A stretch of 63,923 bases of DNA, filler included, from Folioceros fuciformis (GCA_049999805.1; 18 parts of 18 records of this genome joined end to end with filler, not necessarily neighbours in it); one strand, 5' to 3'. Counted from the whole stretch's first letter, positions 383 through 57,014 are shown. Notes: a model not told the origin generated them from the letters alone. Numbers and translations are program-made.

Positions 383-3300
383 CTACTTGAAGTAGGCTGA
401 GTAGTCCTTCAGTCCCATGCCTTCCATGTGGTAATAGTGCTTATATTTGGGCAATCCTTTAGTAAGGATATCGGCAGTATTCTCATTTGTCTGTACGTAA
501 CCCAATTTAAGGACACCTCTGTGTACCACGTTGCGGATGTAATGGTGTTGTACCTCGATGTGCTTAGTCCTGGCATGAAATTTCGAACTTTCCACTAACT
601 CTAAGGCTGCGGTGTTATCGCAGAGTACAAGTGTTGGCTTCTCCTGCGGCTGCCCCAAGTCATTGAGGAAGCTGCGTTCCCACTCAGCCTCTTTGGCTGC
701 TTCAGTTAGAGATTTATACTCGGCCTTAGAGGAACTTAGAGCAACAGATGCTTGTTTTTTGCAGCTCCATGTGACAGCTGCTGAGCCCAACAAGTAATAG
801 TATGTAGAAAGACTCCTACGTGCATCCGAGTCTGATGCCCAGTCAGCGTCCATGAAGCCTCGTAAGATAAGTTGTTTCTGGCCTGTGCTCTTATACATAA
901 GTCCATAGGTGTGTGTGCCTTTGAGATAACGAAAGATCCTTTTAACAGCTACCCAGTGAACCCTAGCAGGATTTTCTAGAAATTGCGAAACTGTACTAAC
1001 CGCATACTGTATGTCAGGGCGAGTCCAATTTGCGACGAATATCAAGGATCCAACAGCATGCCTGTAAGGTACATCCTGCATGTCCTTTTTCTCAGCTTGT
1101 GATTGGGGGCACTGATCCCTAATCAGCTTTGTACCAGCAGCAAAGGGAGTGAGCTGGCCTGGCCTCGTCAAGGTTGAACTTTCTGAGTATCTCTTTTATG
1201 TACTTATACTGATGGATAAACAGTAGCCCTTCTTTCCTCACACGAAGCAATTGGATTCCTAGATAGAATTTAAGCTCTCCTATGTCCTTCATGTCAAATT
1301 TACTGCTGAGTTTGGCCTTGACACTTGCTAACAGCGTTTGATCGTTTGTGGCAAATATAACATCGTCCACATAAAGTGCCAAGATGACAACAGACGCTCC
1401 TTGTGTGAGCTTATACACATTGCTGTCAGCAGCATTTTGGACGAAGTTGATGCTAATCAGGTACAAGTGCATCGTTATATACCAAACGCACCCACTTTGT
1501 TTTAAACCGTAGATACATTTGAGAAGTTTTAACACCTTGTTCGGGTGCTGTTTGTCCTCATAGGCCTCAGGCTGCAACATGTACAATTCTTCTTCGAGGG
1601 CACCATACAAGAATGCTGTGCAAACGTCCATTTGCTGTAGGTCCAGATCAAATTCGGCAGCATATGCAAAAAGGATTCTTATGGACTGAGTGCGAACGAC
1701 AGGAGAGAAGGTCTCTTGGTAATCGAGACCTTCAACTTGGGTAAACCCGCGAGCCACGAGCCTTGCTTTGTATCTGGCCACTTGTCCTTGTGCATTAAGC
1801 TTAAGTTTAAAAACCCACTTACAGCTGATTGCCTTTCTTCCAGGTGGGAGGTCTGCAAGTACCCAGGTCTGATTTTTGATGTGGGACTGGTACTCGTCCT
1901 CCACTGCAGCCTTCCACTGTGCACTCTGTGGGCCAGTAAAGGCCTGCTGTAAGGTGGTAGGCTCATCTGGAATTTCAGAGCTAGCAGTAGCCAAGGCAAC
2001 AACTTGCACTAGAGAGGTTTTTCGGAAGTCAATGGATTCATATCGGGGCTCTGCCCATTGGTCAGGAGGTGGCCTATGACGTGTAGAACGTCTAAGCACG
2101 GGCTCGTCATCACGGGATTCCTCAATGTCTTGAGGTGCATGAGGTGTGGGTATGTCCCCCTCATAATCTGGGATGGGGACAGCATCCCCCTCATCAACAG
2201 AGAGATCATTAATCTCAAGTACATCATCCAGGTCAAGCTGCACATTCAGGTTGTTGTCATGATCAGCATTATTGACATCAGGGTGTGGCACATCAAGTGC
2301 AACAGGTGGTTGATCATCGGCAGTAGGAGACTCAGCAGACTCATCTGTAAAATCCTCCACTGGGTCAGCAATTTCAGAGTCCATGTCATCAAGGGGGTAA
2401 GTAGAGGCAGCCCCCTCGTTCTCCAGAACATCCAGGTCTAATTTATCAGTCATATACTGATCTGAATGTTCTGCCGTCTCTTGTGAAGCAGGGGCATGGG
2501 GCTCAAGAAAAGTGACACTTCGAGCTAAGATCATAGATCCAGTTTTGGGGTTGTACAACTTATAGGCCTTAGTCCGTTCGCTGTAGCCGACAAAACGTAG
2601 TCCTTGTGCTCGAGGGTCAAGCTTTCGTCTTTTCTCAACAGATATATAGGCAAATGCCCGTGATCCAAAAACACGAAGATGTAGTAGCGATGGTTTCCTG
2701 CGCCAGAAAACTTCATAAGGTGTCTTGTGAGGGACTGAACTTGTCAGGACCCTATTGAGGATATAGGTGGCTGTTACCACAGCCTCCGCCCAGTAACCTT
2801 GAGGTAAACCAGCCCAAATCAGCATGCTTCTTGTCATCCCAAGCAAAGTCTGATTTTTGCGCTCTGACACACCGTTTTGTTGGGGTGTGTAGGGGACCGT
2901 AAGCTGCCTGAGGATCCCATGCTCCTGAAGTAGGCTGTCGAAAGATGAGTTTATGAACTCCGTGCCATTGTCAGTCCTTAGAGTTTTGACCAGCATTCCA
3001 GATTGCCTTTGTGCAGTTTGAAGCCAGTCCTTGAAAAACTCAAAGGTTTCATTTTTCAGGCGCATAGGAAAGGTCCATGTATACCTGCTGTAGTCGTCTG
3101 TCAATGTGAAAAAATATTGGGATCCACCCAGTGATGGGGAATGGATCTTTCCTGATATGTCAGCATGGACTAACTCAAGCACTTGTGTGGCTCTTTGTGC
3201 AGGTGCATTAGGGAAAGGTGATTCTTTCTGCTTAGCTAATATGCACGACTCGCATAGAGGTAAGTTTTTGAAACATTTGGGCAGGGGTTCTCTATGGCAT

Positions 3301-4841
3301 TCAGTTATAGACATATCTATCAATTTTCGTCTATTCACGTGACCTAATCTCGCATGCCACAAGACTGCTACCTGCTCAAGTCTAAGTGAGGATACACCAG
3401 TGGAATGTACAGCATGCTGACCGGCTGTATGTTGTGAACAGGTTATGTCCAAGCGGTAAAGGGAATTGTCAAGAATCCCCTTAAAGACACATCTACTAGG
3501 AGATGTACTTCTATAGAATAAGCAGTGCTTAGAATCTGCATACATGGTGAAGGTACATAAACGCATGAGCTGACTCATGGACATGAGATTTTTAGCCATG
3601 CTGGGTACGAAGAGAACATCTTCGAGTGTGAGGTCTGTGTTATCTTTCAATTTGAAAACACACGTGCCTCTGCCTTCAATATGCAGACTAGTCCTAGACT
3701 GCTCATCACCAAGGAGAACCTTTTCATGGACATGAACAAGGCTGAGGGAAGTGAACAACTCCCTCTTTTTGCAGATGTGCATGGTAGCCCCGGAGTCGAG
3801 GAACCAGCTCTCATCATCATGTGTCGAACTTGACAAGCATATGGTGAGAATTTTCACTGGTGCCTTTTCGACAGGTTTGTCCTTCACTGCAACACTTGCA
3901 GCAGGTTTAGCCTGCTTCTGGGGCTCACCAGCTTTGCGTTTTCGGCACTCGCGTGCCCAATGGCCAGGTATGCCACACCAATTGCATGTGCCTGGTCGTT
4001 TTGAGCTTGAGGGTTCAGGCCTGTCCTTGGTTTGTGCTGAATTTCCCCCTCTGAATTTGCCCTTTCCTTTGGGGCGAAAATTCATAGCTAATGCCCTTTC
4101 GGCTTTGGATTGTTTGTGTAAGCCTGCCGAAGTCAAGCGGGTTTGCTCCTCTTGGTAGAGGGCTCCGATTACGTCTTCCATGGTGATGGCTGCAGCCTGT
4201 GTCCCTCTTGCAGCAGCTGCTGCAACAGGGCCATTCTGGTAACTGGTGACAAAAGATTGGTAAGAGGGTGGCAGGCTCGTGAGCAGCTGGGAGACAGCCT
4301 CAGACTCCGTCATCTGTGTTTTCGTGATGGACTGAATCTGAGCTCGAAGATGACGAAATTTGCTGGTATGTGCAGCCATTTTGTCACCTTCTTTCATCCG
4401 CAATGTGTAGAACTCCATACGGACAGCGGACAATGTTGCCATTGTGGTTGTGTGGTAGGTCTTTTCAAGCTGATTCCAAATTTCTTCAGCCAATGTGAGG
4501 AATTCAACGTTGGGAATCAAAATTGCATCAAGCCCATTAACAATGACTGCCATAGCCACTCCATTATTATGCTCCCACTTAGCATACTCATCAGGTTTGG
4601 CTACTGGGTCAGGTTTCTTAAAAGTACCATCGACACTCGACCAGACACCACGTGCTGTGAGGATGGTTTTCATCCGTACTCGCCAGATAGAGTAACCAGT
4701 ACCTCTAAACCTATCCTTGTCCTTGACATCTGAACTAAAGGAAACTGACTGTTGTGTTGCCATGTTTCTGATAGGTGCAGGCTGCAAACTAAGGTTGCTA
4801 AAGCTATTGATTAGCGCATTCAGCTGTGAGGTTGTGGTCAT
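383..4841 (-). CDS. Gag-Pol polyprotein with one frameshift near 1150
   Basis: Zn knuckle CNWCGIPGHWAREC, protease WFLDSGA, integrase WHARLGH/CESC/LVHAD/RTDNGTE/QQNGVSER, RT YKARLVARGF/QMDVCTAF/LYVDD, RNase H DADWA/CDN/RTKHIE. ORFs 1119..4877 and 383..1171 join at EARPA/TPFAAG. First ATG at 4841. Confidence 0.95.
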
Positions 4842-5187
4842 AAGGCACCTATGAGCATCAAAAGCTATGGTTTTCAAAAAAATGCTGGACCCTGCTCATG
4901 CTGAGCTCCTCAGCATACCACTCATGTTTGCCGTGAACAGACTTATGAAACCCTAAAAAATTAAAAAATGTTTCATGTTCAAAAGGCATGGACAACGCTT
5001 CATGTTCACAAACCCTAACTGCCCTTAATTGCCGTGTCATGGTGGTGTGAAATGACAGGTTAGCTGCACCAATCAAAAGAGCTACATGCGAGAATCTGCA
5101 GGGGATGCAAGGAAAGAGGCACCGCTTCAAATCTGGGCAGGGTTGGACCCTGCCACTCTCGCTCCGCTCCTGGGCAGCGGAAGTAGG

Positions 5188-7921: not shown

Positions 7922-9343
7922 ATGTAGATCATGAGATGATTACCTTAACATTAGGTGATTCGTGTTGCTCAAGTTGGATGCGACAGCCTTTTGAATTGAA
8001 CACAATCTCATTTCTTGGGTCAGTAATTCTAGCTATAGAAAGAAGATTTTTGGCAAGACTAAGTACAAGGTGTACATCCTTTATAGTATCTTTGGACTCT
8101 TCACCAGGTAGTTTTACCTTCATGACATCTTTCCCTTTGATCTCGTGTGATGTGTTGTTACCAAGTATCACCTTATGCCCTGTCGACATTTCTTTGTAGT
8201 TTGAGATCTAAGGTTGGTTGTAGGTAAACTGTTGAGATGCTCCAAAGTCTAGGTATAGACTCTCATTCTCCCTTGATGAGCGATCTCTAACTGCTTTTAT
8301 TGTTGAAGCAGAAAAAAGTTTTTCTTCCCACTCACTTGCTTGATTGGCTTGTGATTGTTTTCCCTTAATCAAGTTAGTCAATCTTGTCCTAGAGTCTTTT
8401 GCAGAGTGGTTAGGTTTCTTATAATAATGGCAAGTACCCCATGTCTTATTTTCTTTGCAACTTTCTCCTTCGATCCTTCACTAGAGTTGTCATGTGGGGT
8501 CTTCCCTTGTGACTTTCCTTTCCTTGAAAAAAGTACCGAGTCACCTTTATGTTCATTCTTGAATGAATTCACCAGTTCCTCTTGAAGAAGCAACTCAACC
8601 ACCTCTTCGATCGTCGCTTGTTTATCACTTGAATGCATCGTTGTCGATATCCTGAAAGACAACACAAATTGCGTGTACGCAGATGGTAAATTATTAAATA
8701 ACACCACAATAATCTTTCCTTCGAAAGGTTTGATGTTTGCAGCTTGCATTTTATCAACCAAGTTCTTCAACTTGTTGACATGTTGTTGAATCGTATCCTC
8801 TTTAACCACCTTGAAGTTGGGCAGTTGTTGCTCCAACAACATCTCACTCAACATACTTCTTTTTTCATACATACGATAAAGGGTAGTCCATGCCTTTTTT
8901 GTTGTTGCACACTCACTTAATTGAGAGAGTATGTCATCAAACATATTAAGAAAGATTGTGGCTAATGTTCGTCCATCCTTATCAAAGTTTGGTGGGTGTG
9001 TCTTCGAGGCCCTTGTCGACGAATTTCCATACTCCCCTCTCAACAAAAAGCATCTTCATCTTCAACTTCCTTAGTGTGAAGGTCGTGCCTCCAAGCTTCT
9101 CCACCGAGCTTGTCTCTATAAAACGTGTCTCCATGTTTGTTGATGCCATCTATTTTATCCTCTCGAATTTCAACATATTATTATCTTAGACACTATCTAT
9201 TCTATAGTAATAACATTACCTAAATTAGAAGCAAAATGTTTTTACCATTCTTTGATATGATGCAGATATGATATAAATATTTAACTATTAATTTAGAACC
9301 ATTGCTCTTTTGATGTGTTGTCATAAACCACTCATTTCTAACA
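7922..9343 (-). mobile_element. Degenerate copia 5' part (LTR about 9184-9343, gag, protease)
   Basis: Gag-like AWTTLYRMYE...IQQHVNKL...LPSAY, protease-region LAKNLLSI, with stops and frameshifts. LTR-like TGTTAGA...TCTAAGA. Confidence 0.75.
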
Positions 9344-9787
9344 GTGACAGCGTCCACAGGCCCTGCCCTAGTGAAGAAAGCCTGAAACCGCGCCACGTCC
9401 ATCGTCTGCACTCCACCGACTCGCGTCCCTGATGTGATGCGCCTCTAGCTGCACCACTCCTAAATCCATCGCGTACATTAACACCAAATTCCATCACACG
9501 CTAACGACTCAGCCAGCAAACGCAGCGCATTATGATCCTGATCATCCTCTTCCGCCATCACGAGCCTCCCAATTCTTAGCCAGCTTCCGCACTTCGGTTT
9601 CAAGCGAGCCCGGCGCATGCTCCTTCCTCCTGTTCGCGAAATACGCCTCGATCACCATGACGTAATCCGGCAGCCCGAACCTCCATGCCGTGTGCCCCTC
9701 CGGTTCGTAGTCCTGGATGGTCTCCTCCGGCCTGCCCTTCCTCTCCCGGCTCAGGCTCCCCACGGGGCCCTCCTGCTACAGCGCCAT
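9344..9787 (-). pseudogene. Pathogen-related protein (PRP) family pseudogene
   Basis: WRFGLPDY...HAPGSLETEVRKLAKNWE, then a second exon LEAHHIRDASRW/QTMDVARF, resembling the PRP N-terminus. TAG at codon 4, a frameshift, and truncation by the copia LTR at 9343. Confidence 0.7.
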
Positions 9788-10228
9788 GGAACTCCCTCCG
9801 ATCGTGAGCTCAGAACCAGGATCCCGCTCCAATCCAGAAGCGAAAGACCCTCTTCACCTAGAAGACGGAAACCGAGCGCCGGGGCTCCGGGAATGCAGGC
9901 TGAGCCTTCTACACATCGCTTGTAGGTGTAGGTACACAGAGACCACCGCCCGAACCGCATAGCATGGGCCATGTCATGGCAAGGTTGTACCTGGACTAGC
10001 TCAAGACAACATCGTCGATTCGACGCTGGTTCAAGCAAATAAAAATCGGCATTGGGACCGAGAAGGTACATAATTCACAGCCGAGATGAGATATCATCAT
10101 GCCGCTCAGTTCCTTGACGAGGAGTTGCCAGGGGGCGGTGGAAATATCTCTACGATACGGGATATTTCTAAGGTAATGGGCTGGGTGCGTAAATGTGATT
10201 GGGAGGTAACCCTATTAGGTGGTGAGAA

Positions 10229-11218
10229 ATGTGTGAAGCTGTGACGACGCTGGACAAAGCTGGGAAACCTTGGCGGCTGGCGCGACAGTCTCTCCGCATG
10301 GATGCCGTGTTGAAACCGGCCGTGCTCTGCGTGCCGAGCGCGGAGCTATGGCGGAAATGTGTGAAGAGCTGCGTCGCCGTGTCGCACCATTCTGCGCAGG
10401 CGGCGAAGCAGGGCTCGAGGTGGCTGCCCGTTGAGAAGGGCAGCTGCGTGGTGAGGCGGGGAGGATTGCTGCTGGGGAGAGTGCAGAATTACTCCACGGC
10501 GGAGGCGGCGCTGGACACCGGGAACACGGGTAGGTTTTGCAGCTGGCCGCGCTAGGTTTTGCTTCACGCTGGTGGATTTGCGTTCCTTGCATGGTGGGAT
10601 ACAGCCGCACCATGAATGTTTGTGTTTTGCAGATGTGGAGAGTCCGAAGCTAGGGCAGGAGCCGGGTCAGGTGAAGCCTCCTGGTATGTGTGGTTTTGTG
10701 TGGTGACGTGTCTGTGCCGAGGTTGGACAATGTGATTTAGGGGTTCCTGGATTGCAGAGAGCAAGGCGGAGAGCCTGTGGAGGGTGTTTTTCAATGATCC
10801 GAGTCGGTGGTGGGACGATAGGAGTAAGAAGGTCTGTGTCTCGTGAAACCCTGGGCTGGGAGTGGTGAGAGATTCGTTGGTTTGGATGATGTTTTGGTTT
10901 GCTGAGAGCACGGAGGTGTTTGTTGTTGTGCCTTGCAGCGGTCACCGCAGGATCCGGATTTCCAGAAGAAGGGGACGAAGGAGCCGCTGTGGATTGACCA
11001 TCCCTCGACGCCGGCTTGGGTGAAGGGGGAGTTGGAGGCTTTGCAACAGAAAAGGGAACAGGAAAGGAGACCGCCAGGGCGTTATGGTGGAGGAGGGCCT
11101 GGTGGACCGCCGGGAACCGGGAACGTCTTGGGAAGAAACTTGATAGGCAATGGGAATATCTTGGGGAGGAACATGGGTGGGGTAGATAGAGAGAAACTTT
11201 TTGGGAAGAACTTTGCGG

Positions 11219-11254
<36 letters not shown>

Positions 11255-11967
11255 AGTATGAGAAGAAGGTGGACGCCGACGACAATAATGCAGACGCTGT
11301 CGAGAAGAAACTCGAGGTCGTCCAGAAGAAAGTGGTGGAGGACGATGAGGAGGAAGACGACGAGTGGATCGATGATGGGGATGACCTCATGGCCCGGTTG
11401 AGAAGGAAAGAGAAGCAGGCCGTGAAAGAGAAGACAGCGGATAAGGGTGGATCTGTGAACCATACTTTGGACCCGGACCATAAGTCGGATTTGGAGGAGG
11501 CGGTGGATGCTTTGGAAAATGAGGTGAGGGACCTCAGAAAACGGCAGAAAGAAAAGGAGAGGGAAGAGAAGATAGCGAGAGGAGAGATTGATCCAGAAGA
11601 TGAGAATGAAAAGGCTGAAAAGGCAGCCAAGGCAGCGGCTCCAATAGTGAGGACCCGGGGGAAGGCCGATGGTTATATGAGGAGGTACCCTCGCCACAGC
11701 AGGCAAGCGATGTTGGACGATGAAGGAGGAGACGGGGACTACAACCCAGCTGCATACCACAGTGAGAAATTGGCCATTGCATATGCGCTCATGAAATCGC
11801 CTGAGGGCCACACTATCCGCATTGTGAAGAACCTGAGGGTATGTATAGATTGCCATGAGTTCACCAAGGCTGTAACTCTGGTTACGGGAAGGGAGATCAT
11901 CGCCAGGGACAACACACGTTTCCATCATTTCAAGGACGGCAAGTGCTCCTGCAACGACTATTGGTAG
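10229..11967 (+). CDS. PDF-motif (OSB-like ssDNA-binding) plus DYW deaminase fusion protein; exons 10229-10529, 10633-10683, 10758-10831, 10939-11967; about 484 aa
   Basis: Three GT-AG introns (phases 1,1,0) keep the frame. The exon 3/4 junction gives [47 protein letters not shown] (OSB PDF motif). C-terminus HSEKLAIAY...[10 protein letters not shown]...[23 protein letters not shown]. Alternative ATG at 10298. N-terminus looks like a targeting peptide (inference). Confidence 0.85.
11219..11252 (+). repeat. A34 homopolymer inside exon 4 (poly-Lys)
   Basis: 34 consecutive A; the reading frame is preserved as assembled. Confidence 0.9.
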
Positions 11968-13898
11968 CCTACCCATGCTGGCTCGGAATGGGTGCTTCCC
12001 ACTCGTGATTGGGCCCCTCTGACACACAAAACAGGGCGTTCCTGGTATGACCTTAGCTTTTTCTTGTTGTTTGAGGAGGAAATCTCAGCTTTAGCTTTGA
12101 GTCTCAGTTTAAACCTAACTATAGAACTGCAGTATCGATGGGGAACACGATGTCAGCAGGAGTGGTTTGGTAAACTTCTTGCTGGTAAATGACATCCATA
12201 TGTTGCCTTGCCTACCGCGTGGGATGCACTGAATGTTCAGTTCATTTTCGAAGGAACACGGGCGGGAAGCCACACGGTCGATCCAAGTCGCGTCGTGTTT
12301 GTGCTGTACTTATAACTGATAATAATCAATTGGCAGGACGACATAATGTAGTAAACTATCTGGCCTCACGCCCCGAACCGAAAAAAGAAATTTTTGCATG
12401 TCCGGCCCATCCCGCGTGCATTTGTTCGTCCATTTCTACAGCAACAGGAAGCTCCCAGGAGACCCAAGCAGGTTACACGACTGGGCTCTTACTCTCAGTA
12501 TTCAAAGATTCTCTTGTGTAGGTTATGTCCTGAGGGTAGATTGTGAGTAGTAGACAATTCAGGAGAAACTTGTTCCGTCGCTGGAAGATTCATGTTCCCC
12601 TTTTTCTGAACATTGCGAACCCCCGTGGGACCTTTCGGCTTCTGCGTCGTCTAGACGTACCTTTCCTCGAATTGCAACGAGCCATGAGTTGGAAAGCAAA
12701 AGGAGCAACTCCCAGTAAAGAGCCCAGTCCAGCTGCAATAAACACGGACCAGTCCATCGCGACAAATGAAATGCCGCATACAGGCTGGCAAGTGCGTTCT
12801 GGGCGCATCATGCAGGTGGACTGAAGACCGGTTGGGAGCAGATACACACCCAATGGGGACGAGGCACGCTTGAATGAGCTAGAACATACAATGAATCTGA
12901 GCCGATGCGTGACGGCCAGTCCGTGAGGTCTGCCGCACACTGGACTGACAGACTGACTCGAATTGCGCGTTATCCGTACTCAAATCGCGACCCGTTTGTT
13001 TCACTTGTGCGACAACATATTAAAATCACTGACTTCGACCTCGGCTATGACTTATGGTACATTGCACAGGGTACAGCCCTGGATATTCCCTAAAATACAA
13101 CACTAGAATACAGACTCAAAGGCGGCTGCACTTCCTTCCTACTCCCCTAACTCCCAAGGGATCTTTGAAGCCCGCACAGAAAAACCCCTACTACCCTCGT
13201 ACTTCTGCCTTGTTTGCTATATGTTATCAATCCGAAACTGGATTCCTCGACTCTCCAGCCAATGATCGGCATGAAAGATACATGTTGTCACTTCTGCTGG
13301 TGAGCAATCTATGCGTGGAAGTCAGGGGAAGGAAGTATCAAGAGCCATCAGGTAGGGAACACTTCCACGACAATTTCCCTGCAGACCAGGGATGGATTCG
13401 GTTTAGGATCCGAGATGCAGGAACCCATGATCCTTGACCTTCGTGTTCGGAGATGACTCACTGTCACAGCGGCACATCTTGCCTCAGCCGGGTCCTGCCC
13501 TTGGTAGAACCTTGTTTGAGCAACCGGATCTGTATCCGGCTTTGTGTCAGAGTGTCCAGGACAAAAATCACTCCTTGTCTGTGGCGCCACGAGGTCTTCG
13601 CTCCCTCCTTGCAAGGATGGTCTTTTACTCCCTGCATGCCTGCATCCTGCCATGCGGACTCCGGTTCCATGCTCCCCTGCCTCTCCATTGCCCAGCAAAC
13701 TTCACGCGGACTCCCCCCCTGGAGCACTGCCAGACCGTCACAGAGCAAATATCTCGAGTCCGAGCACAGCTCCACAGAGAAATCCCCAGGCAGACGCAGC
13801 GTAGACGAGGATTATGTCGAGGCCATGGTACATGTATCGGATATGGGTTCAGACACCTCGTCCCCCAGATGAGGAGCCCCAAACCCTTCCAGTCTGCG

Positions 13899-14206: not shown

Positions 14207-16211
14207 GGGTTGTTCTTCAGTCTCCTTCAAGTAGCTCTCCTAACTTCACTGAGTTGCCTGAACCTGCTGATGTTGAAGATGCTGAGCTTGAGCAGCTGGA
14301 GGAGTCTCACTTTCCAGTTTTTTATGCCTCTTTTCCTGCTGAGTTAGATTTACCTCCAGTCCCTCAGCCTGTACCTCTTGTAGCACCTCCTGTGCCTGCT
14401 GATACTCCACTTCTCCCCTATCAGCTTCAGGGTTAGTTGATCCCGCTCAGGATGACCCCCCAACAACATCTGATTCAGATACTGACAATGCTCCTTATCG
14501 TGACGTTTCTATCTTACCTGAGCCTAAACCAAACCATGTGCTATTTCCCCCTCTGCGTAGATCAGCCAGAGTTCATCGGCCTCCATCTCAGTGGGTTGAA
14601 CCGCCCTACAGCAGTGAGGACTTTAGGCATCATGCTATCCATCTTTCTGTTCACCCTGATCATGAGCCACAAACATACAAGGAAGCGCTTAGTGGTCCTA
14701 CAGCTAAGCAGTGGGAGGCTGCGATTCTGTTTGAGTACGACTCTCTTCTTCAAAATCACACCTGGGAAGTTTGCCCTCCGCCTCAGGGGAGGAAGATCGT
14801 CACCTCAAAGTGGGTCTTCAAGCTGAAGTATAAGGCTGATGGCAGTATTTCCCGGTACAAAGCACGTCTTGTGGCTCGGGGCTTTTCCCAAGTGGTTGGA
14901 TTAGATTATCATGACGCTTTCTCCCCAGTAGTCAAGGCTCAGTCACTTCGAGTCCTCTTTGCCCTGTTTGCACATTTTAAGCTGTATATACACCAAATGG
15001 ATGTAAAGATTGCCTTCCTTCATGGTCAGTTGGAAGAGGAAATCTTTATGCAGCAGCCGGAAGGGTACGGACTGAAAGGAAAGGAGGGTTGGGTTTGCAA
15101 ACTACCCAAGACAATTTACGGACTGAAACAGAGTCCACGGGCTTCGTACTTTTGCATAAATGAGTTCTTGCTTGAGCTTGGTTTCCAGAAGAGCTCAGCT
15201 GACACCAACGTATATCTCCTACAACATGAAAGAGGTTATGTTATTTTGGCACTGTATGTAGACAACTGCATTCTTATGGGCACAGACCTAGCAGGAATTA
15301 AAAAGGTAAAAGCTCTCTTATCTGGTCGTTTTGACATGGTGGACATAGGTAAACTCTCTTATTGCCTTGGCACCCAACTTCTGCGAGACAGTGAGTCAAG
15401 AACATTAGCCATTCATTAGGAAAAATACATCTAAGACATGTTGTTTGAGTATAAGCTTACAGAAGCGAAGCCAGCACTTACCCCTTTAGAAGCAGGTTGC
15501 AAGCTAAGTGAGTTGAAGTCCCCTCAATCATATAGTGAACGTGAGGAGATGTCTCAAGTACCCTACCCTCAGGTAGTAGGCTCTCTGATTTTCTGCTGAA
15601 ACCATACTAGGCCAGATGTGGCATTTGCCGTCAGTTCACTGTCTCGGTACCTTAAGGACCCTGGTCGTCCTTATTGGTCAGCTGCAAAGCGCATTCTAAG
15701 ATATCTTAAAGGCACTAGTAGTCATGGGATTACGTATATGAGTCAGAAGACTGAGGGAGACACACTTACCCTGGTAGGCTATTGTGACGCTGACTGGGTA
15801 GCGGATTCTGAGACTAGAAAGTCTGTGTCAGCCTATTCTTTTATGCTAGCCGGTGGAGCAGTTACGTGGTCCTCAAAGAAGCAAGCAACTGTATCACTCT
15901 CCTCGACAGAGGCAGAGTACTTGGCGCTAACACAGGCGGCCAAGGAGGCCATATGGCTCATAAGACTTTTAGCAGACTTTACAGACTCTACAGTTATTCA
16001 TTGCAACAATCAATCTGCCATGGCCCTTGCACAAAATCTGGTATTCCACGCAAGAACGAAACATATTGAGGTGCAGCACCATTTTGTTAGAGGTGTTGTA
16101 AGCTCAGGGCAGATCAAAGTGGAATATATATCAACAGATGCAAATGCAACAGACATTCTTACTAAATCTCTTCCTAGGGTTAAGCATTATCAATTCAAGG
16201 AGGCTTTATGA
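14207..16211 (+). mobile_element. Copia pol remnant (RT plus RNase H), degenerate
   Basis: YKARLVARGFSQ, QMDVKIAF, LYVDN, YCDADW, SSTEAEY, RTKHIE, with stops near 15417-15433. Confidence 0.92.
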
Positions 16212-31462: not shown

Positions 31463-32147
31463 NNNNNNNNNNNNNNNNNNNNNNNNNNNNNNNNNNNNNN
31501 NNNNNNTTAATTAATTAANNNNNNNNNNNNNNNNNNNNNNNNNNNNNNNNNNNNNNNNNNNNGATCTCCCGTACTCCCCAAACCCCGAAGCCCAAGGTGG
31601 ACTTTGGGTGTAAACACCCCGGTCTTACTCGCTTACTAAGCCGATTCGCCTGTCCCTTCACAAAAGAATCACAACCTGCTCATTCCGTCGCTCAAAATGG
31701 GGGTTCCGAAAGTTTTTTTTCGTTCACAACTGGTGACATTGACAGATCTTACCTGAAGAAATGATTCTGAGCGTGAGATGTATAGACCACGTCAGGATTT
31801 CTTCCGGCTAGATTCCAGACGTTCGACTAGCAGCTCGAGATTCCAACTGTGGTGAAGAGTCACAGGCTATCGAGGGGAAAGGCACACGTGGATGTGCCTG
31901 CTCTGCTTCTGTCCAGGTCTCGTGACATTTCATATCCTACCTGTCAACCATTTTTAGGGTTAGTTCATTTAAACAATGTGTTTTGAACTCTTATCCCTAA
32001 TGGGATACCGTTTCAATAGGGGGGGGGGGGGTTTGTGTCTTACTTACTTATTAAGCACTTTAGCACCTCTTCACCTCAGTTGGTGCCTCCCCCTATCACA
32101 TCCGCCTGTTTCCCCTTGCTGCTCAAAACATCACAGACTCTCTAACA

Positions 32148-33557
32148 ATGTTGACGCACCATCCTCCCCCTCCTCCACCAGTGCCTGGATCTTTTACACC
32201 TATCTTCACGTCAGAGTTAAAAGAAAAAGACAGGTTTACGGGACAAAAATATGAGCTATGGAAGGTGAGGATGAAGTCCACTCTGCTTGCTAGAAATGTC
32301 TGGGAATATGCTGATGGTTCTATTCCAGAACCAGCATCTACAGCAACCAAAGGAGAGAAGGATCATTGGGCACATGCTAACAGCGTATGCATGGCCCTCC
32401 TTATTGCTGGTCTTTCTGAAGACCTCCTCCCCGACGTAGAATTCCTCACCAAGGCAAGTCAAATATGGCAACACCTTGCTGATACTTATCAAGTGTGCAA
32501 TGTCATGACGTTATGTGCACTTCGCTTAGAATTCTATGGACTGAAACTGAAAGAAGGGGATAAGGTACTTACACATTGCAACAAGTTTCGTCACTTGAGA
32601 GCTCAACTTGCTGCTGTAGGCACCAAAATGGATGAGATTGATGCAATGGCTCGATTGCTTACGAGCCTCCCTCCCAGCTACCAGAATTTTGTATCTTCAT
32701 ATAATGTTCCCATTAGAACAGCAAATGTTGCTGTTGCTGCTGGACAGGCCTCTCCACTCACCCTTGATGGGGTGATGGGCGCGTTATACCAGGAAGAGCA
32801 AAGCAGGCTCATGTCAGGGTCTGGATCCAAGTCCAAAGCTGACCGAGTGTTTTCTGCTTTCCGTGGTAAACCATTCCAGAGGGGCAGGCCAAGACATGTG
32901 ATAGGTACACATCCTCCTCGCCATGAGACTTGCCATGAGACTCGCCATGAGGCCGGTCCGTCAACTATTAAGCGTCAGGGCACCTGTAACTGGTGTGGTA
33001 TCCCTGGACACTGGGCGAAGGAATGCCGTAAGAAGAGAGCTGGTGAACCTCCGAAGGCTCCCATAACTGCATCAACTGCCACTGTTAGAGAAAAACTTTC
33101 CAGTGCAAGTTCTTCAAAGCCAGTGGTAAAAATACTGACTGTTTGTCTTACCTCATCGACACATGACACATCTTCTTGGTTCTTGGATTTTGGAGCCACA
33201 GCACACATTTGTCATGATGAGACCCAATTCACTAGTCTGCAGCTCACATCAAACGTGGAGTGTGTTTACCTGGGTGATGAACACATTGACACGAGTTTAC
33301 AGATCCTTGGTCAAGGTTGCTGTAAATTCAGACTGAATGACAAGACTGTCCTTACATTATCTGATGTCCTCTATGTGCCTCGTATGGCCAAAAACTTGTT
33401 ATCTTTGAGCAAGTTGATGAAGACCCAGTATTTTCTTCTCCAAGTTTCAGATACCTCCTGTTGCTTCTATCGGAACTGTGCTCCGTCTCTACGTGTGTTT
33501 CGAGCACATCCTGAACAGGACTTGTATCGCCTGGACATCAAATGCATCCTCAGTTCT
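32148..33557 (+). CDS. Copia gag-protease, open frame truncated by family A insertion
   Basis: KEKDRFTG, CNWCGIPGHWAKECRK, WFLDFGAT, MAKNLLS. Confidence 0.9.
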
Positions 33558-33739
33558 TGTGAACCTCCAAAGTTTGGGGTAGTAGTTTGTTTTGGTTGAA
33601 AAAGGGTTAATAGTGGTATGGTTTGGTGTTCTTTTTCAACTTATTTTCCCTAATTTTCCTTGATTTTCTGGTCATTTTTCCTATTTTTCTTTGTGCTAAT
33701 TGGGTTAATTGACCAGGAAATAGTGGGTTTGGTTGTAAG
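33558..33739. repeat. LTR family A terminus
   Basis: Matches 31020 onward. Confidence 0.85.
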
Positions 33740-46899: not shown

Positions 46900-48115
46900 C
46901 ATCACGTAGCACAAACACTCACGTAAACATGTCTGCCTCCTCTTCAATATCTGAATTAAAAGAAAAGGATAGATTTGGCGTGTCCGGATGAGGGCTGTCC
47001 TTGTAGCCAGGAAAGTGTGGACTGTGATGGACGGGACCCGTAAGGAGCCAGCTGCAGCTGCCACAGGAACTTCACTTTCAACTGCTCAACAAACCCTCTT
47101 GGACGAATGAACTTCAGACAACGACCTTGCTGCAGCGCTCCTCATAAGTGGTTTGGATGTTGTTTTAATTCTAGATGTAAAATATTTGCTCAAGGCTCAT
47201 GAGGTATGGGCGCAACTTGAGAGGACATACCAAGTGCGCAATAGGATGGCTCTTTGCGCTGCAAGTTAGGAGCTATTCACCCTTAAGATGAAGGAGTCCG
47301 ACAAGGTTGCAGTTTTTACGAGCAAGTTCAGACATTTACGCGTAGACCTGGTATCTTTTGGTTCTACTATGGATGAAGAGGATGCCATCGCGCAACTGCT
47401 GATCAGCCTTCCACCATCCTATCAAAATTTTGTGAGTATACAAAATGGTCCAATTCGCACTACAGGCACTGCAAGCACATCCAACACTAGGACATTGGAG
47501 GATGTCATTGGGGCATTGTACCAGGAGGAGCAAAGTCGACAGCTTATGTTAGGTGGACATAAACACAAGAGTGAAAAGGTGATGGCTACAAAGTTCAAGC
47601 CGCACACAAATAAAGGGAAGACTCAAGGATCAGGTCAGCGTGCTAGTGACTTTGGATTTTCTTCCACTAAAAGGACAGGCAATTGTAATTGGTGTGGGAT
47701 AGCTAGGCACTGTGCACGTGACTGCCGCAAGAAGAAGGCAGGCGAGCCGCAGCGCCAGCACAAACCTACTTCTAGCATGGCAGTGAAAGACAAGTCTGGA
47801 GGTGACCACAATAAATCTACTGTGAGGATTTATACTGTTTGCCTATCTAGCTCCACGAGGGATAGTATCAGTTGGTATATGGACTCTGGAGCAACTACAC
47901 ATATTTGTATGGACAAGGACTAGTTTTCACATCTGCATCTGCTCAAAGTACCTGAGAAAGTGCTGTTGGGAGATGAGAGGACTGAGACTGGGTTGTAGAT
48001 CAAAGGGCACGGGAGGTGTACCTTTATCCTGCCAGACAATACAAAGCTTACTCTTGACGGGGTGTTGTATGTCCCGAGGATGGCGAAGAATTTGATGTCA
48101 CTTAGCAGACTATTG
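46900..48115 (+). mobile_element. Copia gag-protease remnant
   Basis: IWRVRMRAVL, LPPSYQNFV, CNWCGIARHCARDC, WYMDSGAT, MAKNLMS. Confidence 0.88.
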
Positions 48116-49474
48116 AATTTGCCTGTCAGGTGCGGCGTCTGTGGCTTGAAGAGCCACCTTAAGAAGACTTGCCCTCTCCGTTCAAGAGCCGGGAATGGTG
48201 GGGATAAATCGGAGAAGGCCCCCTCGGGACCTTTGCCAGGCTTTCAAGGTGTTCTCAAGAAACCTTGGAGGTCCAACCCCGACACGCAACTATGGGCAAA
48301 TAGAATTCATAAGTGTTTCTTCCCAGGTAGTGTGGATGCAGTCAACACACACATCAAGGTGTGTGTCCTTATGAGGAAGAAGGTGGGTAAGGTTTTCTAC
48401 TATTGGATGCCGACGGTGGGAGATTTCAGAGCCTTACCTACGCGCTCCCTCCAGGTTGGGGCTGCGATGGGGCACCAGTTTTCCATTTTTTTGGATACTG
48501 TTAAGCTGAGGTCTCGAGGTATGCTTCAAGCGGGGCTGGGGTATGGAGAACAAGTCGTGAGAAAGGTTCTTCAAGGGGCTTGCCACAGTATGGTGTGCCA
48601 CCGACTGGAAGACTCCTCTTCCATCTTGTTTGCAGTCACACTGATTGAGGTGGGTGCTGAGTGTCCAGTTCGGGACAATGGTGTGTCACAATGGATGGGG
48701 GAACCACAGGTGATGGCCTACATTAGGGATGCAAAGTTCGGCAAAGGTAAAGTCACACTGGCTTCTAGGGTGGTCTTCAAGGCCCATTTGGGATTCTTGG
48801 GCTTACTTGCTGCCCCGATCTCGATTAGTTTACCTGGCACTTGGGAGCTTAGATGGGAAGAGGATATGTTCGCAAAGGATTCTGTACCCATGGAGGTGGA
48901 CCTTGTTAATGGCGAGCACTCCAGGAATGCAAGGATGTCGCCAGCAAACAACTTATGCGCCCCTCATAAAGAGAGACAAGGTACAACCGAGGGTCCAGAG
49001 TGCCATGTTGCTACCAAGAGCCCAGACAAGTTGGTGCGCGGGTCTCAACTTGCCTCCCCCGAAAGTGCATCGGCCAGGAAAGACTTGAGAGCAGTGTTTG
49101 ATGCCACCAAGCCTCTCAGCGTCTCTAAGGTAGTCTCGACCGCTTGCAGTGAGCTTCCCACTCCAGGAAGCTCCTTTGGAGTAGCTCGGGACAGTGTTCC
49201 CGAGGGGGGGGTAGTAGGGTCGGTGCTCGCTGGTAAGCCTTTGGTCGGGGGGAATGTGCTGGCAGCATGCAAGGGTGATGGGAATCAAGACTGGAGGCAG
49301 GCTAGTTGGAGGCTAACAGTCATTTTTTTTGAAAAATGCCCTTCTTTTTTCAAGGTTTGGAGGCAGGGTTTTGCTGAGGTCTATTCGGGATATTTGCATG
49401 CAAAGTATGTCTGTACATGTGTGCAAGTGCTTGTGAGACATCAAAGAATTTTTTTTTCTCAAACATTACTTTAA
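48116..49474 (+). CDS. Unrelated ORF with CCHC knuckle (LINE ORF1-like) fused in frame to copia protease
   Basis: LNLPVRCGVCGLKSHLKKTCP (CX2CX4HX4C), followed by about 430 further open codons and an A-tract at about 49505-49518. Confidence 0.45.
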   Translation, partial: NLPVRCGVCGLKSHLKKTCPLRSRAGNGGDKSEKAPSGPLPGFQGVLKKPWRSNPDTQLWANRIHKCFFPGSVDAVNTHIKVCVLMRKKVGKVFYYWMPTVGDFRALPTRSLQVGAAMGHQFSIFLDTVKLRSRGMLQAGLGYGEQVVRKVLQGACHSMVCHRLEDSSSILFAVTLIEVGAECPVRDNGVSQWMGEPQVMAYIRDAKFGKGKVTLASRVVFKAHLGFLGLLAAPISISLPGTWELRWEEDMFAKDSVPMEVDLVNGEHSRNARMSPANNLCAPHKERQGTTEGPECHVATKSPDKLVRGSQLASPESASARKDLRAVFDATKPLSVSKVVSTACSELPTPGSSFGVARDSVPEGGVVGSVLAGKPLVGGNVLAACKGDGNQDWRQASWRLTVIFFEKCPSFFKVWRQGFAEVYSGYLHAKYVCTCVQVLVRHQRIFFSQTLL

Positions 49475-50126
49475 GCATATAAATCTTCGGGGAGGAAGAA
49501 GGGTAAAAAAAAAAAAAGTCATCAAATTATCCCTCTTTTGCTTCACAAGTGTGAACCTCCAAAGTTTGGAGTAGAAGTTTGTTTTGGTTGAAAAAGAGTT
49601 AATAGTAGTTCCCTTTTCTACTTATTTTCCCTAATTTTTCTTTATTTTCTGGTCATTTTTCCTATTTTTCTTTGTGCTAATTAGGTTAATTGGCTAAGAA
49701 ATAGTCGGTTTTGTTATAAGAGTGGGTATAGGTTTGGTCTTAGACCTGGGAAGGTTTAGGTCCGGTACCAAACCATAGGGTCGGGAAAGGTTGTGTCTAG
49801 GTCTGGTGATTAGTTTAATATTTATTAAAGATGTATAATATTAAATGATTAANNNNNNNNNNNNNNNNNNNNNNNNNNNNNNNNNNNNNNNNNNNNTTAA
49901 TTAATTAANNNNNNNNNNNNNNNNNNNNNNNNNNNNNNNNNNNNNNNNNNNNGAGCCCTCGAATCCATCATCGAGTTCATCAAGTCCGACCCTCCACCCG
50001 CAGCAGCAAGGAACCCCATCGCTCCTTCGTGGGAACGAAACCCAATGTCTCAAACGACAGTGGGATAAGTGTGGCCACTAAAGGTGGGACCCTTCGGCAA
50101 TCAGTGCCCGGGGTTTTGCCTCCACA

Positions 50127-52517
50127 CTGATCCTCAGACAGATGAGCATATGCTGTTGCACCAAATATTCTGAGATGATTGATTCTCGGCTTATGGTTTG
50201 TCCAGCGCTCATATGGAGTTGCTCCTGTGAACACACTGGTAGGAACTCTGTTCCTGATGTACACTGCCGTACATACTGCTTTAGCCCAGTATCCTCTCGG
50301 AAGTCGTGCTTGCTGGAGCATTGCTTTTGCTGATTCCTGTGTATGCCGATTGGAAATTTCAGCTATGGGATTTTGTGTTGACGTGTATGGAGTCGTCAGC
50401 TGTCTGGCTATGCCTTGTCTCTTGCAAAAGCTGGTGAAGGCATCTGAGATGTACTCGCCTCCGTTATCACTTCTCAAGACTTTCAGCAGCTGACCTGTTT
50501 GTCTCTGTGCAAACATAACAAACTCCATGAAACAATCCAGAGTTTGACCCTTCTGTTTGATGGGATACACTACCGTGTATCGGCTCCAGTCATCTATGAA
50601 TGACAGAAAATATCTGGCTCCACCAAGTGACATTGTGGACATAGGTCCACATATATCTGAGTGTACTAGCTCCAAGAGCTTGGTAGCACGTGTTGGATTA
50701 CTGTCTTTGTATGGAGCTCGGTGGTGTTTGCCAAACACGCACGCCTCGCAGAAAGGCTTCTCCGCAGGCTTCATCAAGAACCTTTCCCGGTAAAGTGTTT
50801 CACTGTTGACCATCATATTCAATTTGTCAAAGTTAGTATGTCCCAATCGCGCATGCCACAGCCTGGCATCCTGCTCATCCTTCTGTGCCTGTGTCAGGTT
50901 CGCCAATGGTCTCCCATGCCCATACTGAATATCTAGCTTGTACAGATTGTGTTCTGGTGTCCCAATTGCAAAAACTTCTGATTTGTTTGCCTGGTCAACA
51001 ATATGGCACTGACCATTTTCACACATGGTGCTCAATTTATGCTGTACGTCTAACAGGTAAACTGACACCAAATTCTTGACCAAGGTTGGTACATGCAGAA
51101 CCTCTAGCAAGATTTCAACTCTACCAGTTGTGTTTTGGACAGGAACTTTGCCTATTCCTTTAATTGGCAGACCTCGGTCGTCACCAAGGAGCACAACCTG
51201 ACCATTTGGGACCTTTCTGTACTCAGAGAATGCTGATCTAGTATGGCAAATATGTGACGACGCACCTGAATCGAGGTACCATGCATGTCTGTATTGTGGT
51301 GTGGACACCATATATACTGCTAGAACTGTGCTAGGCTTTCTAGATGCCATGTTGGCTTCAGGTGGAACTGTACGGCGAGGCTCACCCGCCTTCTTTTTCC
51401 TGCACTCCGCCTCCCAATGGCCTGGGATCAGGCACCAGTTGCAAGAGCCCTTTTTCTTGTTAGCAGATGATGTTGGGCGGCGCTTGAAACTCCCACTGCC
51501 ACCAGCATTCTGGTTCTGTGATCCCTGTCGTGGTGGCTGCCTTTTTGAGCCTCTATTCGAAAAGAGAACTCGATTTGAGGACTCTCCTCTGGAGGAGGTA
51601 CCACCCTTGCTTGCTATCCTCGTGGATTCTTCCTCCAGGAGGGCTCCAATCAGGTCTGAGAGGGAAACTGCAGGTGTCTGGCCTGCTGGTGTGGCCTGGG
51701 CCACATTCCGCATATGTGTGCAGTGATTGCTCACAAAGACTCGATAGCTATCAGGCAGGGATAGGAGAAGGGCCACAGCAGCCTGCATCTCAGTGGTTGC
51801 AGTCCCACTTGAGGTAAGCTTAGACCTCAACATTCTGAACTTGATGACGTGTTGCTCCACTGACTCGTGCTCTTTCATCTTACAGTTGTAGAAGGCACGA
51901 GTTGCACTCACCATTGATGATCCATTCGACACTCTGTAAATTTGGTTCAGGGAGTCCCAAACATCCTTTGTTGTGTCAGCATCTTGAGTATGGTGCATCA
52001 TTGACCCGTCGAGAGCTGACTGAATGATGCCCAAGGCTCGAAGATTTGATTTTGCCCAAGCGGCTATATCAGCCTGGGCTGCTCCTTGCGGAGGCTTGGG
52101 CACTGTGCCAGTCACGATGCCCCATAGGTCGTGCTCTCTCAAGATGGTCTGTAATCTGAGAGCCCAGATGTCAAACTGGGTGCCATTGAACCTATCTCTC
52201 TCCTTAAAGTCTATTTTCACATTTGTGACTGTGGTTGTATTGTTTGTGACAGTCTGCGGTGGCAGATTTGCCATGTTTCCAATAGCTTGATGTGAAAGGG
52301 CTGATCCTGCTTGTGCTACAGCATACGCCTGAGCTAGCTGCGCAACGGATACAGCATGCAAGCTTGTGCTTGACTGTGAGGAGGCAGTCTCCTGATTTAG
52401 GCCAAGTGGGTCAACTAGGTAAGGATCTGGATTTGTATTTCCACCCCTTCCTGTATCACGACCTCTACGCCTGCCTCTTGGGTTTCTGATACCCCTACCA
52501 TGGTTGCTATTGGACAT
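50127..52517 (-). CDS. Gag-protease-integrase of element 2 (open, truncated)
   Basis: CNWCLIPGHWEAEC, WYLDSGAS, WHARLGH, VHSDICGP, RSDNGGEY. Confidence 0.95.
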
Positions 52518-52626
52518 GAGCTAGCTTTAGGAAGATGCCTGATCATGGGTGAGCGAGAAGTAGATTCTCGTTCCCATGATTAAAGGTTACAGACTGAGGC
52601 TGATTTATCTCCACGTTTCCCACAGG

Positions 52627-54249: not shown

Positions 54250-57014
54250 GAAGTTTGAGGTGTGGTCAAAGCGCATGAAGACTGCGCTCAACACTTAGGA
54301 TCTTCTTCCCATCGTGGAAGAAACCATTCCCAAGCCCACTGCTAATCTGGCTGCCATTGATGCTTGAGTTCGTCAAGATCGACAAGCTATGCAGATGTTG
54401 ATCTCTAGCCTCGATGAGGTTACCTTACACCATACGGATGGTGCGTCCACATCTGCTGAAGCTTGGAAGCAAATCACTGACATCTATCAGTCCACTAACG
54501 TGATGACGCTGGTCTCGGTACGCCTGGAATTCTATTCTTTGCACATGTGCCCCAATGACAGCGTTGCTCAGCACGTTAGCAAGTTTCGATATTTGCGAGC
54601 CTAGATTGCTGCTCTTGGGGCAACCATTATCGAATTTGAAGCTGCTGTTCAGTTATTGGCTAGCCTCGTGGCTAGCTACCAAACATTTGTCTCCTCTCAA
54701 AACCAAATGGTGAGAAATGCACATCAGGCTGTGCAGTTGGGTACGGTTCCCAATATCACCGTGTCCGAGATCGCTGGAGAACTCCTTCAAGAGGAGTCTG
54801 CCAGGTTCAATGTCGGGACCTCCAAACATGGAGGAGAGAGGGTCATGTTCGTCTCCACAGGACGGCAATCGCAGCGTAAGAATTCTTATAATAATAACAA
54901 TCGAAGGAATAACTCCACAGGTACTCCTAAGCCTGCTTCCTTAGCACCCTCTTCGTCGAAGACACCAAAGCGGCAAGGTACATGCAATTGGTGCCAGTCC
55001 CCAGGTCATTAGGAAAGGGAGTGCAGGAAGAAGCAAGCTGGTGAGGCCAAGCACAAACCTCGCACGCCAAATACCATGGTGGTTTCGATTAAGGCCAAGA
55101 ACCATTCTAACCTTGGCGTTGCTCTCACTGTTTGTCTTGTGACCTTTGAGTACAAGAGTTCCTGGCTGATAGATTCTGCCGCGTCAGTGCATATCTGTAG
55201 CCACAAGCCGATGTTCGCTACGTATGCAGCGTATGCTGATACTCAGCGTTTTGTACTACTTGGGGATGACTCTGGCCTTTCTATTGCGGGACATGGTTCC
55301 ATCACCTTCACTTTGGATGATGGTTCCTTGCTGTTTCTTACTAATGTGCTACATGTTCCCCAGATGGCCAAGAATCTTATCTCTGTTAGACAGCTCGTGC
55401 GGGATGGATCCTTTTGCCTCAACTTTGGCCCTGGAGACTGTTTGTTATCTCGGACTTCTAACCCACGGGTCATTGTTGCTAAAGGTCGTCCTCGTCATGA
55501 TTTATATGTCTTTTCAAGCAAGCCCGTGCCTTCAGCGGCTGCCTCTACGGTGGTTTCCTCTCACGGAGACCAGCCTCATAGGAGCTCGCATCCAGGTGTA
55601 GCTCTCTTGTGGCATTGCCGACTCGGGCACCTCAACCTTGCTCGACTACTTACCACCTCCCAGCAGGACTTGTATCAAGATAAAATTCCTAAGCTTTCAT
55701 CAACACAGCCTCTCTGCAAAGCTTGTGTCCTTGCTAAACAGAGAAGTTCCCCTTATCCTACTCTTCCTGCTCGTCGGTCTTCAGCACCTTTTGATTTGGC
55801 CCATGTAGATTTATGTGGTCCTCTACCTGTCTCGTCTCCAGGCAGAGCAAATCACTTTATGACTGTTGTAGCGTAGGATCGATAGCACGCAGCGTAGAGA
55901 GAAAGCTTGTGTTCAGATTAAAAATGAATGTGCGTGTGAGGCCCTTATGTGGCCGTGTCAAGTGAAACGGCATGGCGGTTAACCGTTGACGCTTCGGTGC
56001 ACCTGTTCGTGCACTTAATATATTTAAGTATATATATGGCTATTTATTAATGACCTAAACCTATCCAGGACGGCGGGATACGGGCTAGTTAGGGCACCGT
56101 TTCTCGCTATGTTGTGGATGACTTTAGTCCATATACGTTTGCCTTTCCTATCCGTCTTAAGAGTGACTCGTTTAATGTGTTCTCACCCTTTGTTACTATG
56201 GCCGAGTTACAGACTGGCCATAAACTTCGGTGTATTTGCTCTGACAATGCGGGAGGGCTAAACAACCTTCAGTTTCGCGACTTTTGCGAGCAGCGTGATG
56301 TCTTGCGTCAGTTTACTGTGCCCTACACTTCTTAGCAGAACGGCGTTGCTGAGAAGGCCAATGGTGATTTGATGTCCATGGCTCGTGGCATGTTGGCACA
56401 GTCCCAGCTGCCCAAGTCCTTTTGGGCTGAGGCTGTGTCTACAGCGGTGTATATTAAGAACAGAATCCTCACCAAGTCGATTTCTGGCCGTACTCCTTAT
56501 GAGTGTTGGCATGGGAGCAAGCCTTTAATTTCACATCTTCGTGTTTTTGGTTGCCCTGCCTATGCTCTTGTCCCATCACAGCTTCACGACAAGCTTGATG
56601 CTCGTGCTCGCAAGTTGGTGTTTGTCGGTTATGGCGATGACCGCAATGCCTACAAGCTCTTGGACTTGGACTCTCGGATTCCTATCTATGCCCGCACTGT
56701 CACCTTTGATGAAGCTAAGATAGTGTCTGCTCTTGCGACGTCATTTGAGTCTCCTCTTGACGTGCAAGATGGTGCTTCCTCTGGCTCGAGCACTCCTCGC
56801 TCTTCTGGTGATACTTCTATTCATCACTTTGTTCAGCCCTTTACTTTTTCGACTGTTAGTGTTCCTCCTTCTCCTGTGGCTCCTATCCCTCAAGCAGTTC
56901 TAGTGCCGCCTATTGCTGGTCCGGCTCCCCAAGTGCAACCTGCTCCTGCGTCACCTGTTCCTGCTCGAGAGGGGGACATGGAAATAGACCACAAGGTAGT
57001 ATCTGAGGACCCAC
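54250..57014 (+). mobile_element. Degenerate copia gag-PR-INT
   Basis: CNWCQSPGH, WLIDSAAS, WHCRLGH, HVDLCGP, SDNAG, FWAEAV, with several TAG stops. Confidence 0.9.
55869..56109. mobile_element. 241-bp insertion (probable solo LTR) with TAGCG...CGCTA ends and 5-bp TSD TGTTG
   Basis: Removing it plus one TGTTG restores the integrase frame HFMTVVDDFS. Confidence 0.8.

Follow-up and report, generated by a model that had tools for sequence, protein, structure and literature searches.

In a 63,923-nucleotide stretch of DNA from Folioceros fuciformis (GCA_049999805.1), referred to below in its full length as the window, a gene at positions 10229 to 11967 on the plus strand encodes a protein with a PDF motif near its N-terminus and a DYW-type cytidine deaminase domain at its C-terminus. 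This combination is real: the gene is expressed, it carries the PDF motif together with a shortened DYW domain, and it has no pentatricopeptide repeats (PPRs). The gene is nuclear, has four exons and comes from a land plant outside the seed plants; its product is neither an OSB protein, as it has no OB fold, nor a PPR protein, as it has no repeats.

Joining 10229-10529, 10633-10683, 10758-10831 and 10939-11967 gives an open frame of 1455 nt (divisible by 3), or 484 amino acids, interrupted by three introns of 103 nt (10530-10632), 74 nt (10684-10757) and 107 nt (10832-10938), all GT..AG. Exon 1 (10229-10529) begins with a start codon at 10229, or alternatively at a second ATG at 10298, and supplies about 100 amino acids that look presequence-like in composition, with 15 arginines and lysines against 7 aspartates and glutamates in the first 100 residues. 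The 51-nt exon 2 (10633-10683) continues the frame, and exon 3 (10758-10831) carries the first half of the PDF motif, which starts at 10760. Exon 4 opens with the second half (10939-11043; PDFQKK...LWI...WVKGELEAL) and continues into a linker of about 209 amino acids (11044-11670), Gly-rich and then Lys/Glu/Asp-rich, within which a homopolymer of 34 adenines (A34; 11219-11252) encodes Glu and 11 Lys in frame. A family-specific segment (11671-11757) then leads into the deaminase core (11752-11964), with HSE at 11758-11766, CIDC at 11842-11853 and the terminal DYW. The stop codon and 3' untranslated region occupy 11965-12386, the downstream limit being the end of the transcript contig that we consider next.

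That contig came from sequencing run X1, which shared 0.79 of the sampled words from 10100-12100. That X1 is RNA is only an automatic guess; the absence of the three introns from its contig is our reason for taking the run as cDNA. The contig, 2879 nt long at a depth of 414, aligned to 9800-12500 with 0 mismatches and 0 gaps, omitted 103, 74 and 107 nt exactly at the three predicted junctions, and joins the PDF exons to the DYW end. Its final piece, 10937-12386, has 1450 letters on both sides, so that the full A34 tract is present in the spliced product, in frame. Spliced contigs from two relatives (X3 and X17; other organisms, other studies, about 90% alike) had the same three introns removed; for intron 2 both skip 76 nucleotides interrupted by 2 letters, or 74 nt net. 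At 1477 nt, the X17 contig spans 10201 to 12002 and again has the PDF exons and the DYW end on one molecule. The gene model of three GT-AG introns and about 484 amino acids put forward in the preliminary description of this locus is borne out at every junction by the X1 contig, and the two relatives splice alike; a misjoin at the poly-A tract, named beforehand among the outcomes that would refute that description, is not the case, since spliced contigs cross A34.

The X1 contig also extends 576 letters past 9800, reaching about 1 kb upstream of the ATG (about 9224-10228), while the contigs of the relatives begin near 10192-10201. This upstream extension represents a long leader, or else the fused transcript of a neighbour or a transposon.

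Constraint figures were drawn from 40 listed of the 109 differences from the relatives, and are hence rough: 39 of the 40 are coding, 23 of these synonymous and 16 not, with a ratio of non-synonymous to synonymous change (pN/pS) of about 0.2 over 10229-11370. Of five listed changes inside the PDF motif, one is non-synonymous and four are silent. Every indel is a multiple of 3 (63 nt net, plus 3, 3, 3 and 9 nt); the 63-nt difference arises in X17, where the 129 nt of 11209-11337, around the A tract, are swapped for 66 nt, in frame. The frame is open in three organisms. Because spliced contigs come from three organisms and three studies, the indels stay in frame and pN/pS is about 0.2, we conclude that the gene is real and under constraint.

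The linker is fast-evolving. No Pfam family matched it at E<=1 except a chance-level BRI3BP (E 0.22), and a word-based search with exon-4 residues 1-275 found 0 database proteins at E<=1 among 5188 candidates; its last part is modelled as helices. The charged, low-complexity stretch described earlier is accordingly about 209 amino acids with no recognisable domain. Its Gly-rich start (11110-11180) contains the short peptide N(V/I)LGRN(L/M) twice. A retro-insertion ending at A34 was considered and rejected: the part upstream has introns, and the homologous Lys/Glu-rich stretch of the relatives is shorter. Expansion of a lysine-rich run fits the A34 tract better. Given the tract and the unmatched linker, the gene could be decaying or poorly expressed in this species.

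The deaminase domain is recognisable and shortened. Pfam DYW_deaminase (PF14432) matched exon-4 residues 272-342, the last 71 residues of the protein, at 1.6e-32 and 111.6 bits (cut-off 24), with the match restricted to profile positions 23-93 of 93; in the PPR-DYW proteins P0128 and P0172 positions 1-93 are matched. No PPR, E_motif or Eplus_motif was found at E<=1 in exons 1, 3 and 4, the 17-amino-acid exon 2 lying outside the scan; E and E+ motifs are both present in P0128 and P0172. HSE, CIDCH (C.DCH) and CSCNDYW (CSC.DYW) fall in invariant columns of the DYW alignment. When aligned with its orthologues and with canonical PPR-DYW proteins, the protein is missing the PG box and the H.F..D..HP block that follows it, and where canonical domains read GY.PDT..VLHD just before HSE it has a segment of its own, 11 residues followed by ...EGGDG, which none of the five canonical PPR-DYW proteins aligned possesses. 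The preliminary description had reported intact HxE, CxxC and DYW elements, a remodelled segment before HSE and the lack of PPR, E and PG-box sequences; Pfam, the alignment and structural modelling agree with it on these points.

The 148 C-terminal residues were modelled with AlphaFold2 (AF2) from 42 sequences (pLDDT 81.4). The model shows a helix bearing HSE (81-92), then a strand (99-102), a second helix with CxDC (109-122) and strands at 126-129 and 134-138. The N-terminal PG-box hairpin, which the P0128 model has at 432-445, is absent from it. The deaminase core, on alignment and model together, keeps all zinc and catalytic residues in a domain without the PG-box hairpin. Solved structures point to a precedent: by sequence the best match was 7w86_A, Arabidopsis DYW1 (E 1.5e-28), followed by a synthetic PPR-DYW and OTP86, and by fold 7w86 again (E 2.7e-9, TM 0.75 over 125 columns), OTP86 aligning over 69 columns only. 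The comparison with DYW1 made in the preliminary description is well founded. DYW1 is described, in a 2026 review, as a truncated DYW domain of four strands and two helices with no PG box, requiring complementation by CRR4 to act like a PPR-DYW holoprotein (PMC13041630). By its predicted structure our protein has the defining traits of DYW1-like deaminase donors, and the missing PG box, taken with the dependence of DYW1 on CRR4, favours a protein that acts in trans on RNA over one that edits DNA by itself.

The shortened domain belongs to a family. A first search with exon 4 returned mainly PPR-DYW proteins, by way of their DYW part; an exhaustive search gave 2096 matches at E<=0.001, in which a few PPR-DYW proteins match in two stretches, and four at E<=1e-30 (P0121, P0001, P0122 and P0123). 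P0122 and P0123 are PPR proteins whose two DYW copies inflate their scores; each has two near-identical E2-DYW ends in tandem, which look like gene-model or assembly joins. The others are different: P0121 (147 amino acids), P0001 (226 amino acids, 62% identity over the BLASTP match) and P0272 (265 amino acids) have the RRYPRHSR segment in common with our protein and contain no PPR. P0272, a transcript of the hornwort Nothoceros aenigmaticus and cluster mate of P0001, is the only named PPR-less orthologue. In a FastTree phylogeny of 280 DYW tails, these three and our protein form a clade with support 0.954 and make up a conserved family of PPR-less DYW proteins.

Loss of the PPR array, the E motifs and the PG box might instead mark a non-catalytic or decaying, lineage-specific remnant of a PDF-PPR-DYW factor, still transcribed and either functionless or active solely as a competitor or scaffold in an editing complex. 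The linker, unmatched in the database and evolving fast enough for 129 nt to have become 66 nt in a relative, would suit such a remnant, as would an A34 tract that may impair translation and a position among Copia retrotransposons. A pN/pS of about 0.2, indels that are all in frame and a frame open in three organisms are not what decay predicts; HSE, C.DCH and CSC.DYW, moreover, are invariant across orthologues down to about 45-60% identity, and contig depth is high in three runs, though depth is a poor measure of expression. We consider a remnant unlikely.

At the other end of the protein, a PDF profile built from 113 motif segments matched residues 119-177 of the spliced product with 73.2 bits (E 6.5e-25). 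Scanned in six frames with this profile, the window gave matches in exon 3 (positions 3-28, E 2e-10) and exon 4 (positions 27-62, E 1e-8) and no other match below E 1; the two exon halves abut at profile positions 27/28, exactly as expected of a motif split by intron 3, as had been proposed. The motif aligned with the PDF of the OSB-like protein P0375 at 39% identity over 70 amino acids (E 2e-13), so the kinship with OSB PDF motifs suggested earlier also stands. P0375 consists of an SSB domain (Pfam, 1.5e-18), then the PDF motif, and nothing else; the Pfam scan found no SSB or OB-fold domain in our protein. The tail of our motif, WVKGELEAL, fits a consensus of PPR-type proteins (..P.WV.a..AaM), and P0375, the single OSB-like sequence, is without that tail. 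No Pfam family covers the PDF region in P0128, P0172 or P0375.

The motif has a wider association with PPR proteins. The motif WWD.R...PDFKHK...LW is complete, ahead of the PPR array, in P0128 (Sphagnum compactum), P0157 and P0172 (Diphasiastrum complanatum) and P0252. A search with residues 88-145 of P0128 yielded 106 candidates and from these 104 proteins, 103 of which contain PPR Pfam families, the remaining one being the OSB-like P0375. By count of the listing, the 103 derive from Diphasiastrum complanatum (42), Sphagnum species (42), Calypogeia fissa (2) and unnamed sources (17). In these PLS-type PPR proteins the PDF motif immediately precedes the first PPR, and in 100 of them it falls within residues 1-200; 37 have the HxE...CxxCH signature and an xYW end, making them complete PPR-DYW factors. 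P0356 and P0374, both from Diphasiastrum complanatum, are PDF-headed PPR proteins that stop just after the PG box, the E+ form; ends of this type could be the counterpart which a PG-box-less DYW protein completes. In an AF2 model of P0128 (105 sequences) the PDF module lies directly before the first PPR at a pLDDT of about 90, with helices at 84-100 and 140-146 and short strands at 105-107 and 120-122; the motif of P0172 lies at residues 80-140. An atlas search with the PDF part of P0128 gave a top score of 0.75, to a phage cluster, which is under lead level and was discarded. Judged by these sequences, the PDF motif is not a marker of OSB proteins only; in mosses, in a liverwort and in a lycophyte one polypeptide commonly carries it together with DYW.

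These proteins change how the PDF motif should be understood. The preliminary description took it to recruit the deaminase to single-stranded DNA (ssDNA) or nucleoids instead of by a PPR code, and pictured an autonomous enzyme, brought by the motif to ssDNA, nucleoids or nascent transcripts, that would edit DNA or act co-transcriptionally with no PPR guide. The catalytic residues are intact, an SSB-domain protein carries a homologue of the motif, and the PDF motif of AtOSB1 is reported to be sufficient for ssDNA binding (PMC6963530). The same motif, however, heads 103 PPR proteins of the RNA-editing family, and because of this it does not serve as a mark of DNA targeting; our copy, moreover, has the PPR-type tail that P0375 does not. 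Its occurrence on RNA-editing PPR proteins removes the argument from an ssDNA label, although DNA binding as such is still compatible with it. DNA editing by any DYW domain was not found in the literature examined, and DYW1, the closest solved domain, needs a partner. Neither recruitment to DNA in place of a PPR code nor a DNA-directed editor survives as the favoured view, and we regard such an enzyme as very unlikely.

A self-sufficient RNA deaminase of low specificity, in which RNA binding would fall to the PDF motif and the basic RRYPRHSR segment in place of the PPR tract and PG box, is a further possibility to which we attach little weight. It would account for the conservation of the basic segment in all four family members and could draw on the compact, confidently modelled PDF module of P0128. 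The model of our protein, however, shows nothing that replaces the missing strands, with residues 50-75 at a pLDDT of only 54-69, and RNA binding by the PDF motif is a supposition.

Set beside known systems, the protein resembles Arabidopsis DYW1 (PDB 7W86) in having no PPR array, a DYW domain that is cut short at its N-terminus and lacks the PG box, and intact HxE, CxxC and DYW-end motifs, and differs from it in adding an N-terminal PDF motif and the charged linker, in the conserved RRYPRHSR...EGG.G segment before HSE and in its non-seed lineage; the truncation common to the two may be convergent. With PDF-PPR-(E/E+/DYW) proteins such as CAM6033764.1 (P0128) and KAJ7558666.1 (P0172) it shares the near-N-terminal PDF motif with the same extension after LW and, with those that end in DYW, a C-terminal deaminase with identical catalytic motifs; those proteins, however, combine a PPR array and E1/E2 or E+ motifs with a full-length DYW domain (1-93), in place of which it has a low-complexity linker and the truncated domain. 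Its PDF motif is homologous to that of the OSB proteins (OSB1-4); in contrast to them it has no OB-fold/SSB domain, its PDF precedes the rest of the protein instead of lying C-terminal to an OB fold, and a deaminase is attached. A similar part has been proposed for short DYW and DYW:KP proteins in Salviniales ferns and for the "handful" of DYW domains in Anthoceros agrestis: as free deaminases of non-seed plants they would act in trans for many PLS PPR proteins. The text available describes them as a class only (PMC12548569).

Copia-type LTR retrotransposon pieces (gag, integrase, RVT_2) fill the window, and the gene lies between such elements: on the minus strand at 1119-4895, 8378-9055, 49980-52520 and 59789-60439, and on the plus strand at 14403-15419, 32064-33599, 47999-49474 and 55013-55876. 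One piece is an open polyprotein frame of 1258 amino acids. Eight further open frames of the window were scanned against Pfam, and seven, among them the three that lie upstream of the gene, had no match; the sole match was a retroviral SH3-like domain in the frame at 59789-60439 on the minus strand.

We suggest that the gene encodes a DYW1-like deaminase donor for C-to-U RNA editing, derived from a PDF-PPR-E-DYW factor. This is the best reading of the locus, and we hold it at about even odds, a probability of roughly 0.5. The protein comprises a presequence-like N-terminus, which would direct it to an organelle, a PDF module, a fast-evolving charged linker and a C-terminal DYW core whose deaminase pocket, as in Arabidopsis DYW1, would be incomplete alone. 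It would dock in trans on deaminase-less PPR proteins of the PLS type with an E2 or E+ (PG box) terminus; such a partner would recognise the RNA, and the reconstituted DYW domain would convert C to U in organellar transcripts. It most likely originated by loss of the PPR array, E motifs and PG box from a PDF-PPR-E-DYW factor. Because the PDF motif and DYW are the two ends of ordinary factors in these lineages, the gene looks like an editing factor without its middle. Enrichment of the E+ subgroup is exclusive to hornworts according to one study (PMC13386178), and suitable E+ partners are plausible.

Several observations weigh against a DYW1-like donor. The combination of PDF and DYW without PPR is confirmed only in the window species and two close relatives, and the Nothoceros open frames (226 and 265 amino acids), which may be incomplete, contain no PDF motif. 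The link to hornwort E+ proteins hangs on a single named orthologue, which shares about 45-50% of residues with our protein across the 148 C-terminal positions aligned. The sister group of the clade was not resolved in the DYW tree, which had no Arabidopsis sequence in its set and in which long-branched PPR-DYW proteins of mixed kinds are the nearest tips. With A34 in frame, protein yield could suffer, as ribosomes can stall on poly(A) tracks. Finally, the ssDNA binding reported for AtOSB1 leaves a place for a DNA-binding contribution by the PDF motif.

The preliminary description had supposed that a PDF-DYW fusion was undescribed. No paper linking the PDF motif with PPR or DYW was found in the openly searchable literature, a scope beyond which lie the original OSB1 paper and supplements, so an earlier mention may exist; in the available part of one review that contains both PDF motif and pentatricopeptide, PDF is mentioned only in OSBs, and the word pentatricopeptide is absent from a 2026 study of 182 OSB genes. 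As far as the literature goes the supposition therefore stands; it fails as a statement about proteins, as PDF and DYW on one polypeptide are common within PPR-DYW factors. PPR-less, PG-box-less DYW donors are known already; the novelty lies in the PDF module at the front of this one, in its lineage and in the broader connection of PDF with PPR proteins. A more far-reaching proposal, which we find doubtful, is that the PDF motif is an old shared part of non-seed organellar RNA editing, in common with the OSB proteins, and a handle that unites PPR readers and free deaminase by single-stranded nucleic acid binding or PDF-mediated assembly in lineages whose editosomes, on one proposed model, consist mainly of PPR and ORRM proteins. 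The gene described here would be the trans deaminase for C-to-U editing in plants rich in E+ and poor in DYW.

Organellar editing in hornworts, ferns and lycophytes affects hundreds to thousands of sites. Some such plants have very few complete DYW domains, and free DYW domains acting in trans have only been supposed there (PMC12548569). The locus described here provides a concrete candidate for such a trans deaminase, expressed, conserved, to all appearances catalytically intact and truncated as DYW1 is, and makes that supposition directly testable. A motif known only from OSB proteins is also a standard N-terminal module of PPR editing factors in the mosses, liverwort and lycophyte concerned, which raises the question of its ligand there, and the PDF motif should not be read as a DNA-targeting label.

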